The position numbers are program-made. A stretch of 60,475 bases of DNA, the filler included, from Sphingomonadaceae bacterium (GTDB taxonomy: Bacteria > Chloroflexota > UBA6077), in NCBI GenBank assembly GCA_050261575.1. It is 3 parts of 3 records of this genome, joined end to end, with 100 filler letters (N's around TTAATTAATTAA, not from the genome) between each part and the next. Parts side by side here need not be neighbours in the genome. Positions count along the whole stretch, not along the records: positions 31,428 to 56,082 come from JBLNDL010000076.1; 2 more parts are not named here. The stretch is one strand, 5' to 3'. Every line of letters starts with the position of its first letter. Position 1 is the first letter of the stretch. Positions 36,001 to 39,000 of the stretch are shown here, one piece after another.

Positions 36001-39000
36001 ATCCAGGGGAGTCATCCCGCCTGAGCCCTCTCACCCCTTCATCGCCTCCACGATTGCCTCGGCCATCTCGGCCGTTCCGGCCGAGCCGCCCAGGTCGGCG
36101 GTGACTCGCCTCCCCTCACGCAGGACTGCGGCTACGGCTCGCTCGACCCTGTCGGCGGCCGAGGTCTCCCCCAGGTGGTGGAGCATCATCACCCCGCTCA
36201 GGATGGTCGCCGTGGGGTTCGCCTGATTGAGCCCGGCTATGGTGGGCGCCGTGCCGTGAACCGGCTCGAAGACCACGACCTCCGGCCCTACGTTGGCCCC
36301 CGGCGCCAGGCCGAGTCCCCCGACCAGTCCCGCGCACAGGTCCGAGAGGATGTCGCCGTACAGGTTGGGCGCCACAACCACGTCGTAGACCTCAGGAGAC
36401 TGCACCAGTTGCATGCACATTGCGTCGACGATGCGATCCTCGAAGCCGATGGTGGGGTAGTCTAGGGAGACCTCGCGGGCGGCCTCCAGGAACATGCCGT
36501 CGGTCAGCTTGAGGATGTTGGCCTTGTGGACGGCGGTCACCTTGTGGCGTCCCTGTCGGACGGCGTAGTCGAAGGCGAACCTGGCTATCCTCTCCGAAGC
36601 GCCTCTGGTGATGATCTTGATCGCCTCCGCGATGTCGGGTGTCACCAGGTGCTCGATGCCCATGTAGAGGTCCTCGGTGTTCTCGCGCACCACGACCAGA
36701 TCCACTGTGTCGAACCGCGTGTGGATGCCCGGGTACACCCTGGACGGTCGCACGTTGGCGTAGAGGTCCAACTCCTTGCGGAGGGCGACGTTCACACTCG
36801 GGTAGGTGCGGGTTGTGGCTCTCCTCTTGCCCCCTTGGGTCCAGCAGACTGGCACGCTGAATCCCTTCCCGATGGGCGTGGCGATCGGCCCCTTCAGGGC
36901 GATCTTGGTACGATCCAGGGAGTCCAGCACGACGTCGGGCAGCGGGGTTCCGTATTCCTCGATGACGTGGGCCCCGGCGGCGACCACCTCCCAGCGGATC
37001 CTGGCCCCGCTGGCGTCGATCACCCGTCTTGCCGCGGCCGTGACCTCTGGCCCTATCCCCTCGCCTGGAATCAAGGTTACCTGGTGCATCCGTCTCCTCC
37101 CCTGTGGCGGTGCGGCCGGGGGCGCCCTCACTCCGGCCCGTCAACGAAGGCTTGCGCAAGTAGCCCCAACACGATTCGGACCAGCCGTTGCCGGCTTGTC
37201 CAGACTTTGGCTCTTTGGTATCCTGTCGCCAACGTGTACCAGAAAGATCCCTCTGAGAGGGAAGGGGTCCCGCTTGCCGGGCGTGGTTTGGTCTGCGGGC
37301 GTCCGGTTCAGGCTTAGCCGCGCTGGGCCGGTCCACACGGCGGTTCTGTCCGAACCCCGGCCGATTGCACGGGGAATACGAGACTCGGAGAGGAGTCAGC
37401 ATGCGCATCGACGACAACCTTTGCACGGGATGCTGGGAGTGCGTGCCCTACTGCCCCGTGGGGGCAATGCTGCCCGAGGACGGGATAGTGAGGGTCGATG
37501 AGGAGCAGTGTGTAGAGTGCGGCACGTGTCTGCGCACCGCGCCTTGTCCCAGCGGCGCGATCTACGAGCCCGAGTCGGTCTACCAGTGGCCGCGCTCGGT
37601 GCGCAAGGTGTTCAGCGATCCCAAGGCCGTCCACGAGAAGACGGGCGTACCGGGCCGTGGGACCGAGGAGTGCAAGACCAACGATGTGACCGGCCGGACC
37701 AAGCGGGGCCGCATCGGGCTGGCCGTGGAGTTGGGGAGACCCGGCGTCGGCACCGACTTCCACGACGTTGAGAAGGTGTCCACCGCCCTCGCACGGCTTG
37801 GAGTGCACTTCGAACCGTGCAACCCGCTCACCGCGCTGATGGAGGACACCGCGACCGGGAAGATCCGGGATGACGTGAAGACCGAGAAGGTGCTCTCGGC
37901 GATCGTGGAGATCGACACCGGCATCGAGAATCTGAAGTCGGTTCTCGAGACGGTCCGGGGTGTCACAGCCGATCTCAAGACAGTGTGCGTGGTGGACTTG
38001 ATCTGCCGGTTCGACCCCGACGGGAGCATTCCGGTGCTGCCCATCCTGAAGGAGCTGGGGCTCGAGCCGCGGCCGAACGCCAAGATCAACATCGGCGCGG
38101 GCCGGCCGCTGTGCCAACTGTAGGGGAGGGTAGGTGAGATGACACATTCGCTGCACCGCCGGGGAACCGTCGAGGATCTGCGTGGCGACTACGTCCTTCT
38201 GGTCACGCCGGCCATCGGCTTCAACCACGAGGGGAAGAAGGCTGCCCTCCAGAAGGTGGTGGACATCGTCTTCGACGTGGGGCCCAACAACATCGCCTCC
38301 ATCGAGGCCACGGGCACCATCTACACCGGCACTACCAAAGACGACATAAAGAACAACATTCACGACAAGGGTCGGGTGCGCTGCTGCTTCGATAGCCGCG
38401 AGAAGATGGCCGAGGTGATCAAGCGGCTGGGAGAGGCCGACCTGGGGCTTTCCATCACCGTGAGCGGCCTGATCGACGAGGTCGTGCCGATGGCGAAAGC
38501 CGCCGGCTTCGAGCCCCACACCATCAACCTGTCCCTTGGCATCCACGGCAACACCGGCTGCCTGCCCAGCGAAAGGGTGCTGGAGATCACCAGCATGTGC
38601 GGCCACGGGCTGGTTGCCACCAACCTGGCCAAGGCGATGATCAAGGAGGTCAAGGCCGGGCGGAAGTGTCTGGAGGATGCCGCCATCAAGCTGGCCCAGC
38701 CCTGCTTCTGCGGTATCCTCAACGTAGAGAGGGCCAAGCAGATCCTGCTGGCGGCCGACATCTCCGACGCGGAGTAGCCGCTGGGTGGCGACACAGGCTG
38801 CCCCCGAGTCCGGAGGCAGTACACGACGTCTGGGGTGGGAAACGGCGCCCACCCCAGACTCCTCTTCTCCACTGATTGCCCTCGTCACAGGCGGTGGCTC
38901 AGAGCGATCCACCACTTCGGGTCGCCCCGCGTCGCGACGGTGCGCCTGCCCACATCCCTCTACCGCACCTCCACGTATTTGCCGGCCGGTCTATTGACAT

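Follow-up and report, generated by a model that had tools for sequence, protein, structure and literature searches.

What is encoded by two adjacent genes that, a short ferredoxin domain apart, match no named protein family, and what might their products do together? The question is raised by positions 37401..38777 of the window, by which we mean the whole stretch of DNA analysed (60,475 nt, filler included, from Sphingomonadaceae bacterium, assembly GCA_050261575.1). Two plus-strand open reading frames, a large-subunit gene followed by a small-subunit gene, are separated here by 15 nt. We conclude that the pair is probably an iron-sulfur complex of a widespread nameless family, acting as an electron-driven enzyme of organic-acid breakdown.

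The gene pair and its two products

The large-subunit gene (37401..38123, plus strand) encodes 240 aa and a stop; the homolog alignment begins at the ATG at 37401 and not at the TTG further upstream at 37365. The small-subunit gene (38139..38777, plus strand) encodes 212 aa and a stop, and its product starts with MTHSLHR. Each gene has a Shine-Dalgarno-like GGAG run: GGAGAGGAG at 37387..37395 (plus strand), with the ATG of the large subunit 5 nt on, and GGGAGGG at 38124..38130 (plus strand), directly 3' of the large-subunit stop and ahead of the small-subunit ATG. A perfect, GC-rich hairpin of 10 bp, with no T-run after it, can be read on the plus strand at 38830..38857, 53 nt past the stop, and is a possible transcript end; a terminator scan gave no plus-strand site past the operon and did not call this hairpin. 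The pair is flanked by the hrcA-grpE-dnaK-dnaJ operon and by a divergent gene of the isocitrate/isopropylmalate dehydrogenase family (36031..37131, minus strand; Pfam Iso_dh, E 8.4e-103), whose top NCBIfam match, isocitrate dehydrogenase, scores 411.7 bits, under the cut-off of 510. The window copy is described here as a bicistronic operon adjoining an isocitrate-dehydrogenase-family gene, and that gene is taken as context only. One 172-nt contig from one soil metatranscriptome covers 38502-38673, which is not enough to call the genes expressed.

Residues 1-58 of the large subunit (37401..37574, plus strand) are a 2x[4Fe-4S] ferredoxin domain of the Fer4 clan by both sequence and fold. Fer4 families, confined to these residues, were the only Pfam matches of the large subunit at E<=10 (PF00037 Fer4, 37.2 bits against a cut-off of 21.1; PF12837, 36.7 against 25), and all eight ligands (Cys 8, 11, 14, 18, 37, 40, 43 and 49) are present in 97 of 97 large subunits. 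The fold match to the clostridial ferredoxin 1dur has a Z of 7.8 and an rmsd of 1.3 over 54 aligned residues, and the two CxxCxxCx(3-5)CP motifs are shared with ferredoxins of that type. Unlike a clostridial ferredoxin, however, the large subunit is only one quarter ferredoxin, and neither its remaining 180 aa nor any part of the small subunit has a relative whose function is known. This C-terminal domain (residues 60-240; 37578..38120, plus strand) is without a named family in Pfam, NCBIfam, PDB and fold searches; a PDB sequence search with the large subunit returned ferredoxin domains only. It carries an invariant loop, G85-R-G-T-E-E-x-K-T-N-D-V-T-G-R99 (37653..37697, plus strand), of which G85-R-G-T-E-E90 and K92 are conserved in all 97 large subunits.

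The small subunit gave nothing credible in Pfam (best Ntox16, E 0.16), no family in NCBIfam and no match in a PDB sequence search. Its 41 aligned homologs had no Pfam family in common at E<=1 (the commonest, GatB_Yqey, was found in six of the 41 with a best E of 0.022), and the ESM Atlas returned unnamed clusters only. When its profile was searched against 1.84 billion representatives, the best 150 matches listed were all family members. At 50% identity the small subunit alone falls into 857 clusters. Conservation was assessed at 79 foreign loci and in this genome, 99 small subunits in all, and every one keeps H3, H6, R7, D17, G137, L142, C154-G-H156, C189, C191, G192 and N195. These include the N-terminal motif M-T-H-S-L-H-R with His3, His6 and Arg7 (38139..38159), Cys154-Gly-His156 (38598..38606) and Cys189-x-Cys191 (38703..38711), all on the plus strand. 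When sampling was widened to 120 representatives of clusters, all full-length, C154-G-H156 is kept in every one, but His3 is replaced by Asn or Asp in nine, as it is in three large-small fusions examined, so a site dependent on His3 or on a free N-terminus is not universal.

Much of this had been put forward in the genome-wide survey's note. Both reading frames and the MTHSLHR start are where it had placed them, with a novel large-subunit domain that comes to 180 aa, and our Pfam, NCBIfam and PDB searches agree with it that the small subunit lacks a known family and that the large one has Fer4 alone. Its count of 713 small-subunit homologs was obtained again; the 2813 given for the large subunit was not reproduced as such, residues 60-240 yielding 3887 homologs as a query. 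Among the residues that it called invariant, His6, C154-G-H156, C189 and C191 hold in 99 of 99 sequences, and His3 does not in the wider sample. The note had also allowed that a remote link to a known fold might refute it. AF2 models, which carry no ligands, were obtained for the small (pLDDT 92.9) and large (88.5) subunits, and both Foldseek against the PDB and a wide VIA search returned nothing beyond the ferredoxin domain and generic beta-alpha-beta folds, with best Z values of 7.3 and 7.8 (all <8). The small subunit is modeled as a beta-alpha-beta and a helical domain, its helical C-terminal half (residues 113-212) being barely sampled in the match lists. Both novel domains share a very common beta-alpha-beta-beta-alpha-beta fold, which gives no hint on chemistry. 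These searches support the view that the non-ferredoxin part of either subunit lies outside any named family or specific solved fold.

Several names attached to homologs, or suggested by the motifs, were considered and set aside. JGI labels several large-subunit homologs 'PreA subunit'; the large subunit has no FMN-binding TIM barrel (Pfam, E<=10), is 240 aa long and carries its ferredoxin domain at the N-terminus, and we rejected this identity. The name DUF362 is given by NCBI and UniRef to two large-subunit homologs (P0150 and P0228). PF04015 is missing from the Pfam matches at E<=10, and the label probably stems from a shared Fer4 insert. A-type Fe-S carriers (IscA/SufA) have a C-Xn-C-x-C motif; no PF01521 Fe-S_biosyn match was found in the small subunit (P0002) or the 41 homologs, and the modeled fold is beta-alpha-beta plus a helical domain, unlike the HesB-like fold of those carriers. 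A hydrogenase-like function was dismissed as well, the ferredoxin domain being the sole likeness and no maturases lying nearby.

Pairing of the subunits and the predicted complex

Six small-subunit copies, 36-47% identical to the window copy, and six large-subunit copies, 44-64% identical, occur in this genome, each large-subunit gene directly upstream of a small-subunit gene and all at the contig places listed in the survey's note. The same arrangement holds elsewhere. At 79 loci in other genomes, a large-subunit C-domain immediately precedes 121 of 123 small-subunit genes on the same strand, and in the reverse check 120 of 121 large-subunit genes adjoin a small one, with gaps mostly of 0-36 nt. 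These loci were drawn by one peptide pattern and include many related Desulfobulbales genomes, so that context counts from them are not independent. Of 66 genomes of the class, 10 carry the large subunit and these 10 also carry the small one, with matching copy numbers. Fusions of large and small subunit are known in both orders: P0263 (456 aa) and P0268 (511 aa) run large then small in a single chain, while P0341, P0419 and P0266 have a small-subunit profile match with a Fer4 stretch behind it, P0266 also matching the large C-domain. In P0328 the small subunit is fused to a Fer4_11 polyferredoxin.

Further support for a paired unit is provided by complex prediction. The two window proteins gave an ipSAE of 0.93 in each of three runs (best of three controls, 0.00), in line with what the survey had reported; the runs share at least 87% of contacts, with a partner pLDDT of at least 90. 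When the tool was calibrated, 116 of 157 solved complexes and 2 of 215 mismatched pairs passed the mark. Neither sequence nor fold searches found a solved complex like this one, which makes it unlikely that the prediction merely reproduces a known structure. The predicted interface takes in residues 15-19, 21, 40, 42 and 45-46 of the large subunit, near the cluster cysteines, together with 81-86, 94, 98 and 100, and residues 1-8, 156-163 and 187-191 of the small subunit. In the predicted complex, the N-terminus and the Cys/His motifs of the small subunit would thus be set against the ferredoxin domain and the GRGTEE loop. Taken together, gene adjacency, co-occurrence, fusions in both orders and the complex score support the view, also that of the survey, that the two proteins form one obligate unit. 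The survey had placed the catalytic metal on the small subunit; since the modeled interface also takes in the invariant GRGTEE-KTND loop of the large subunit, the site may instead be shared by both.

The window pair belongs to this family by its gene order (large then small) and by its H6-R7, C-G-H, C-x-C and GRGTEE-K motifs. Members are found in Chloroflexota, Bacillota, Thermodesulfobacteriota, Rhodospirillales and other groups, often in several copies per genome and within operons that serve to take up and degrade organic acids. Close orthologs of the window copy, 80-94% identical, lie outside the representative genomes, and within the class the best foreign match reaches 48% identity. The family has no name and no solved structure, and no mention of it was found in print by its motifs, by DUF1932/Tct/ferredoxin, by CODH context or by GltD-like/Dehalococcoidia. 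In the available text of an eLife 2026 paper on CODH contexts (PMC13056359), which excludes clades G and H, 'Tricarboxylate' and 'Tct' occur 0 times.

Proposed electron supply and genomic setting

The C-domain of the large subunit is contained in 29 longer proteins, about 22 of which (585-722 aa) have a GltD-like NAD(P)H/FAD module (Fer4_20 and Pyr_redox_2). In P0243 this module is inserted between the two halves of the ferredoxin domain. Such insertions support the survey's proposal that electrons pass through the ferredoxin domain. Fer4_20 and Pyr_redox_2 are absent from the window large subunit (Pfam) and are confined to fused relatives such as P0243; a search for the GltD fusion in 401 Chloroflexota genomes found ordinary GltD-like regions only (query residues ~34-510). 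In dihydropyrimidine dehydrogenase (PreT/PreA) and in enzymes of the glutamate synthase type (GltB/GltD), electrons run from NAD(P)H through FAD and [4Fe-4S] clusters to the catalytic site, and the ~22 relatives share this electron-supply logic. Unlike those enzymes, the pair has no DHODH-like FMN barrel or glutamate synthase domain (Pfam), and no NAD(P)H module is found in the window.

Neighbours were labelled after crude ORF calling, with one Pfam-scanned representative per cluster, and their NCBIfam names were mostly under cut-off. On this basis a carboxylate-type transporter (Tct, TRAP, CitMHS or MFS) is present in 66 of the 79 loci, with Tct genes in 54. The tie to carboxylate transporters claimed by the survey is a trend of the family and does not extend to the window copy, which has no transporter or electron module alongside and the Iso_dh gene as its sole catabolic neighbour. 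Elsewhere, neighbours include an NAD_binding_2/DUF1932 dehydrogenase (33 loci), DHDPS family (17), PdxA (11), aconitase (7) and Ldh_2 (6), and further ILVD_EDD, LarA and GlcDEF-like genes. A ferredoxin- or NAD(P)H-linked electron module, counted as a Pyr_redox_2 flavoprotein, a Fer4_11 protein, a CODH-like protein or a 2-oxoacid:ferredoxin or aldehyde:ferredoxin oxidoreductase, occurs in 49 of 79 loci, often directly upstream of the pair. Minimal operons consist of a regulator, the pair and TctCBA (for example L025, L040, L060 and contig C29 of this genome), a CitA/DpiB-type sensor pair lies on contig C5, and deep orthologous subfamilies hold fixed operon positions. Solved relatives of the adjacent TctC and NAD_binding_2/DUF1932 proteins are structural-genomics or distant entries only and are silent on ligand. 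The survey's description of an oxygen-sensitive enzyme of anaerobes finds no support in the host, which encodes heme-copper oxidase subunit I (E 1.5e-164) and CtaG; an aerobic terminal oxidase fits poorly with a very oxygen-labile enzyme.

Candidate functions

We favor a heterodimeric oxidoreductase that draws its electrons from ferredoxin or NAD(P)H, has a Cys3/His metal site at the interface and works in hydroxy-/oxo-carboxylate catabolism, and we would give this reading about an even chance of being right. Electrons would enter by the two [4Fe-4S] clusters of the ferredoxin domain, supplied by free ferredoxin, by a neighbouring ferredoxin-linked oxidoreductase or by a flavoprotein of the NAD(P)H:ferredoxin type, or else, in the relatives that have one, by the built-in GltD-like module, and would then reach a catalytic metal site at the subunit interface. 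Its putative ligands are Cys 154, 189 and 191 and His 3, 6 and 156 of the small subunit, with the GRGTEE-KTND loop of the large one; it would most likely be a three-Cys [4Fe-4S] cluster with one open iron, or else an Fe or Ni centre bound by Cys and His. The compound reduced there would be a small carboxylic acid or something formed during its breakdown, preferably in our guess by reductive removal of a hydroxyl or by reduction of an activated double bond. The strict gene pairing, the fusions, the conservation and the gene contexts are observations, and the binding and the interface are predictions. We infer the metal site, the direction of electron flow and the class of reaction; the substrate is a guess, as is the reduction or dehydration that the survey proposed. 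The reductive dehydroxylases IspH and IspG hold a [4Fe-4S] cluster by three cysteines, leaving one iron open, and are fed by ferredoxin or flavodoxin. The pair resembles them by its three invariant cysteines and, plausibly, by a necessary supply of low-potential electrons and by hydroxylated acids as substrates, an analogy of working principle only, as Pfam gave no LYTB or GcpE match and neither was among the fold matches listed.

Should the pair prove to be an enzyme, pathway maps and genome-scale models lack at least one step in the catabolism of carboxylates and acid sugars under anaerobic or microaerobic conditions, and bioinorganic chemists would take an interest in a new metal site that lies at an interface and receives its electrons from a ferredoxin domain. 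A bolder version, which we consider doubtful, is that of a new metalloenzyme class: a pseudo-symmetric heterodimer of two anciently duplicated cores, with a novel interface Cys3/His metallocluster wired to the ferredoxin domain, that would use ferredoxin or NAD(P)H to remove hydroxyls from, or saturate, free hydroxy-carboxylic or sugar acids that are not CoA-activated. To our knowledge, such removal or saturation is otherwise confined to CoA thioesters or to Mo/flavin enzymes. Were this true, the many paralogs in bacteria of soil, sediment and gut would represent a large store of substrate specificities that has yet to be tapped. Relatives naturally fused to an NADPH module would suit a spectrophotometric assay, and the TctC binding proteins encoded in the operons would offer a direct route to the substrates.

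The pair might also be a non-redox Fe-S hydro-lyase, a dehydratase for sugar acids or hydroxy-dicarboxylates in which a three-Cys cluster would act as Lewis acid, as it does in aconitase, IlvD and tartrate or serine dehydratase, and the ferredoxin domain would be structural or keep that cluster reduced. The three invariant cysteines and histidines of the small subunit fit such a cluster too, and such an enzyme would suit acid-sugar-like operons with DHDPS-family aldolase or dehydratase, NAD_binding_2 dehydrogenase, xylose-isomerase-like TIM barrel, PdxA and DUF1537-type kinase genes, several of them without another evident dehydratase (for example type B: NAD_binding_2, pair, TctBAC, pair, Ldh_2, DHDPS). 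The pair would resemble L-serine dehydratase alpha/beta, an Fe-S enzyme of two subunits, one with an ACT-like fold, and the L-tartrate dehydratase TtdAB in its putative three-Cys cluster and its presumed part in breaking down hydroxy acids, as well as in its two small subunits and an ACT-like beta-alpha-beta fold, but those enzymes lack the ferredoxin domain or NAD(P)H module that the pair or its relatives have. The GltD-like module in ~22 relatives and the fusion of a small subunit to a polyferredoxin are unexpected for a mere Lewis-acid enzyme. A flavoprotein reductase stands directly upstream of the pair in 27-29 loci, the eight ferredoxin cysteines are kept in 97 of 97 sequences, and ILVD_EDD or GD_AH dehydratases are already present in some of the operons. 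Neither subunit matched SDH_alpha/beta, Aconitase, Fumerase, ILVD_EDD or any other hydro-lyase family in Pfam or NCBIfam. We consider a hydro-lyase unlikely.

A dedicated electron-transfer adaptor, itself no enzyme, would link NAD(P)H or ferredoxin modules to other catabolic enzymes, with the Cys/His site as a further transfer cluster. The 49 of 79 loci with a ferredoxin- or NAD(P)H-linked oxidoreductase, the frequent place of the pair directly behind PorB, aldehyde:ferredoxin oxidoreductase or a Pyr_redox_2 flavoprotein, and the fusions to Fe-S and flavin modules would all suit such a role. The minimal regulator-pair-transporter operons, however, hold no other enzyme to serve, and these operons, like the subfamilies at fixed operon positions, argue for a catalyst rather than a carrier. 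The same is argued by some 20 invariant charged or polar residues (among them Arg, Lys, Glu, Thr and Asn) beyond the cluster ligands, which resemble a substrate pocket. It would be unusual for a carrier to have six diverged paralogs in one genome and two or three distinct pairs in an operon. Many subfamilies, with two or three pairs in 39 of 79 loci, are as expected of enzymes that differ in substrate. An adaptor thus seems to us quite improbable.

N-terminal His and C-x-C motifs occur in Ni chaperones and A-type Fe-S carriers. That the pair uses them as a metallochaperone site and delivers metal or cluster, for example to the adjacent deviant CODH-like protein encoded in 27 of 79 loci and on contig C5, is very improbable, as the CODH-like gene is absent from 52 of 79 loci and four of the five loci of this genome, no HypA, CooC, CooJ or IscA-type match was found in Pfam or NCBIfam, and the pairs diversify with catabolic operons and have GltD fusions that fit a chaperone poorly.

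The two-gene operon in the window

The gene for the large subunit, LRG (37401-38123, plus strand, an ORF of 240 aa), is followed in the same direction by that for the small subunit, SML (38139-38777, plus strand, an ORF of 212 aa), across a gap of 15 nt. Reading of the sequence places a GGAGAGGAG run ahead of the LRG ATG, a GGGAGGG run within the gap, and a GC-rich hairpin of 10 bp with no T-run (38830-38857) 3' of the pair. Upstream and divergent lies a gene of the isocitrate/isopropylmalate dehydrogenase family (36031-37131, minus strand; Pfam E 8.4e-103), for which every NCBIfam match fell under its cut-off. 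Downstream, a perfect CIRCE element (TTAGCACTC-N9-GAGTGCTAA, 39024-39050) stands upstream of hrcA (39115-40134, plus strand), and grpE, dnaK and dnaJ complete a textbook heat-shock operon under HrcA control. With the divergent gene on one side and CIRCE and the hrcA operon on the other, the pair is therefore a two-gene operon. No transporter adjoins it, and the link to carboxylate transporters drawn in the genome-wide survey's note fails for this copy. Since the window consists of three contigs (C73, C76 and a third) with N-filled joins at 31328-31427 and 56083-56182, arguments from gene neighbourhood must stop at these joins; the pair is located on the second contig. A single 172-nt contig from one soil metatranscriptome maps to 38502-38673, a weak hint that the SML region is transcribed.

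Also in the window are a gene for a caa3-type CtaG assembly factor (34608-35507) and, adjoining it 3 kb upstream of the pair, one for a MOT1-type (MFS) molybdate transporter (33022-34407; Pfam MFS_MOT1 E 4.4e-54). The survey had described the enzyme as one of anaerobes. This is too narrow, because genes for heme-copper oxidase subunit I (host contig C91:15765-17105, E 1.5e-164) and CtaG are present in the host, which by gene content is able to respire oxygen. This capacity was unexpected in an organism with six copies of an Fe-S enzyme presumed to work at low potential.

LRG and SML as one unit

Nearly all of the survey's factual claims were reproduced. SML and LRG are each present six times in the host genome, every LRG immediately 5' of an SML. 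HMMs built from our own alignments were run against 79 loci of other genomes, translated in all six frames, where the LRG C-domain was found directly upstream on the same strand for 121 of 123 SML genes; one exception lies at a contig edge and the other is an internal partial match. Conversely, SML lies downstream of 120 of the 121 LRG genes, the sole exception again being at a contig edge. Within the host's class both genes occur in the same 10 of 66 genomes in equal copy numbers, one apparent excess being a partial LRG match in genome G021. Carriers that can be cultured include Desulfitobacterium, Gelria and Gudongella. LRG and SML are also fused into single chains (proteins P0263 and P0268). 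Three further proteins (P0341, P0419 and P0266) carry an SML profile match with a Fer4 stretch behind it, of which P0266 additionally matches the LRG C-domain, and P0328 joins SML to a Fer4_11 polyferredoxin.

The two proteins are predicted to bind each other. The complex prediction reproduced the survey's score of 0.93, here in each of three runs, against 0.00 for the best of 3 controls; the runs have at least 87% of contacts in common, with partner pLDDT of at least 90. In the tool's calibration, 116 of 157 solved complexes attained this mark, as did 2 of 215 mismatched pairs. The predicted interface takes in LRG residues 15-19, 21, 40, 42 and 45-46, which flank the cluster cysteines, the invariant loop (81-86, 94, 98, 100) and further residues within 192-236, together with SML residues 1-8, 102-142, 156-163 and 187-191. 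A profile-profile comparison by hhalign of SML 1-140 (38139-38560) with LRG 60-240 (37578-38120) gave a probability of 18% with the first alignments and 43.5% (E 2.4e-4, 120 columns) with broader ones, pairing the motifs H..RGTxE..D, P-N, T-G and G-x-P-H/R..I-N-x-G-x-G. Without amounting to proof, the comparison hints that the two cores are diverged paralogs, in which case the complex would be a pseudo-symmetric heterodimer.

Family searches agreed with the survey: in Pfam, residues 1-58 of LRG match Fer4 families only and SML has no credible match, a sequence search of the PDB returned ferredoxin domains only for LRG and nothing for SML, and the ESM Atlas holds solely unnamed clusters. SML had no match in NCBIfam, and a Pfam scan of 41 SML homologs revealed no family common to them. 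The 713 SML homologs were recovered as reported, and the LRG C-domain as query found 3887. Among 1.84 billion cluster representatives, HMMER matched SML to 857 clusters at E<=0.001, of which 506 remain at a cut-off of 1e-10 and 241 at 1e-30. AF2 models were confident (pLDDT 92.9 for SML, 88.5 for LRG). Foldseek against the PDB gave no match at E<=0.001 for either model, and the best Z scores in a wide VIA search were 7.3 (SML) and 7.8 (LRG). The LRG model matches the clostridial ferredoxin domain 1dur (rmsd 1.3 over 54 residues); LRG residues ~100-230 and SML residues ~15-112 match the same generic beta-alpha-beta-beta-alpha-beta folds. The model of SML is helical over residues 113-212, a part hardly covered by the fold-match lists. 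No specific structural relative of either protein emerged from the Foldseek and VIA searches, which barely sampled this helical part, so a remote link to a known fold is still conceivable. Searches of literature and databases (preprint supplements outside their scope) found no family name, solved relative or printed mention. We regard LRG/SML as a new protein family; the proposed catalytic heterodimer has no known relative.

Operon contexts and electron supply

Neighbours in the 79 loci were labelled from ORFs that we called greedily ourselves (70 aa or longer) and grouped into blastp single-linkage clusters, with one median-length member per cluster scanned against Pfam and 75 further genes added. 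Cluster 10, whose member overlaps the SML gene, was left out as an antisense artefact. A single peptide pattern was used to collect the loci, many of which are from related Desulfobulbales; the counts below are thus descriptive only. Of the 79 loci, 54 have Tct genes and 66 have a carboxylate-type transporter of any kind; 6 of the remaining 13 are shorter than 9.3 kb. Regulators were found in 46 loci, a NAD_binding_2/DUF1932 dehydrogenase in 33, the DHDPS family in 17, PdxA in 11, aconitase in 7 and Ldh_2 in 6. Single loci contain a DUF1537-type kinase, HpcH aldolase, LarA, GlcDEF-like genes, a galactarate-dehydratase-like gene, an RraA-like aldolase or ETF-linked FAD oxidases. The NAD_binding_2/DUF1932 protein (297 aa, locus L032:8279-9169), often directly adjoining the pair, has not been characterised either: NCBIfam gives it no name, and the PDB entries nearest to it come from structural genomics (3qsg, 4ezb, 1i36).

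Five operon types recur. Type A, in Desulfobulbales and Rhodospirillales, runs from a xylose-isomerase-like TIM barrel through GntR, TctCBA, Fer4_11, CODH-like, Pyr_redox_2, two pairs and NAD_binding_2 to DHDPS or MFS. Clostridia have type B: divergent LysR, NAD_binding_2, pair, TctBAC, pair, Ldh_2, DHDPS. Type C comprises Fer4_11, aldehyde:ferredoxin oxidoreductase, a small ORF, NAD_binding_2 and a pair. Type D (gut/rumen Oscillospirales and Christensenellales) has IclR, CoA-transferase, CitMHS, four 2-oxoacid:ferredoxin oxidoreductase subunits and a pair, and type E (Desulfitobacteriia) PdxA, NAD_binding_2, TIM barrel, ILVD_EDD, TctC, pair, TctBA, pair and DHDPS. Among the host's own copies, contig C5 shows part of type A (Fer4_11, CODH-like, pair and Pyr_redox_2) plus a CitA/DpiB-like sensor pair; C29 has TctCBA, with TctC at L009:7847-8947, and a pair, C25 two tandem pairs with IclR and MFS, and C70 a D-2-hydroxyacid dehydrogenase, DJ-1/PfpI and a pair. 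In a tree of 99 SML sequences the window's copy clusters with one of the C25 copies (C25b) and, at locus L086 from Anaerolineales, with the first pair. Two or three pairs are present in 39 of the 79 loci, and an operon's first and second pairs belong to different deep clades, each kept across genomes, as would be expected if they had distinct specificities or served distinct steps.

An electron module is present in 49 of the 79 loci, often immediately 5' of the pair: a Pyr_redox_2 flavoprotein in 29, Fer4_11 in 27, CODH-like in 27, 2-oxoacid:ferredoxin oxidoreductase in 11 and aldehyde:ferredoxin oxidoreductase in 7. Of 29 longer proteins with the LRG C-domain, about 22 (585-722 aa) contain Fer4_20 and Pyr_redox_2, a GltD-like NAD(P)H/FAD/[4Fe-4S] module. 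In one, P0243, the first Fer4 motif (residues 1-26) precedes this module, and the second follows it together with the C-domain (508-718). LRG forms of 219 aa retain the second Cys motif only. Taken together, each form keeps at least one cluster beside the novel domain. In electron-supply logic the system is like DPD/PreAT and GltBD.

The splitting of a clostridial ferredoxin domain's two Cys motifs by a GltD-like insertion, as in P0243 and about 21 similar proteins, is unusual; the organism labels seen on these fusions were Dehalococcoidales and Chloroflexota only.

Proposed function and alternatives

Across 99 SML sequences H3, H6, R7, D17, C154-G-H156, C189, C191, G192 and N195 are invariant, and across 97 LRG sequences the eight ferredoxin Cys, G85-RGTEE90 and K92. 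Among 120 full-length SML representatives C-G-H is found in all and C-x-C-G in 106; His3 is replaced by N or D in 9, and its invariance, claimed by the survey, is not universal. We propose, at about an even chance, that LRG/SML is a heterodimeric oxidoreductase acting on a carboxylic acid or intermediate. Electrons from ferredoxin or NAD(P)H modules would travel through the 2x[4Fe-4S] domain to a metal site where catalysis takes place, located between the subunits and built from SML Cys154, Cys189, Cys191, His3, His6 and His156 and the LRG GRGTEE-KTND loop; the substrate would be either a carboxylic acid brought in by a transporter or an intermediate of the pathway. Gene pairing, fusions, conserved residues and operon contexts were observed directly, and binding and interface come from prediction. 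We infer the metal site and the direction in which electrons flow, and our guess at the reaction is reductive dehydroxylation or reduction of a double bond.

The three Cys and the acid-sugar operons would also suit a non-redox Fe-S hydro-lyase, which we consider unlikely as the built-in NAD(P)H modules speak against it. A dedicated electron carrier is rather improbable given the many invariant polar residues and the minimal operons of regulator, pair and transporter. That the pair matures the CODH-like neighbour is scarcely credible, this gene being missing from 52 of the 79 loci.

One locus is unlike the carboxylate operons. In a Bacillota MAG (L011, 5112-18294) a duplicated block holds two divergent pairs, M20 peptidases, DUF6754, three unnamed ORFs, gamma-glutamyltranspeptidase and a xanthine/uracil permease, a context that hints at another substrate class, e.g. 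amides or nucleobase derivatives.

The CODH-like gene encodes a CODH/prismane-family protein of ~490 aa (L007:6685-8148, the host's C5:56685-58148) that stands beside pairs in 27 of the 79 foreign loci as well, accompanied by a CooF-like Fer4_11 protein and a Pyr_redox_2 flavoprotein. Its cluster representative had no Pfam match at 1e-6, and the host's member matched Prismane at 6.1e-37. Aligned with CooS-II, it keeps equivalents of Cys333, Cys446, Cys476 and Cys526, has N and V/G at the positions of His261 and Cys295, and misses ~140 residues; from this alignment it looks like a protein with a deviant C-cluster.
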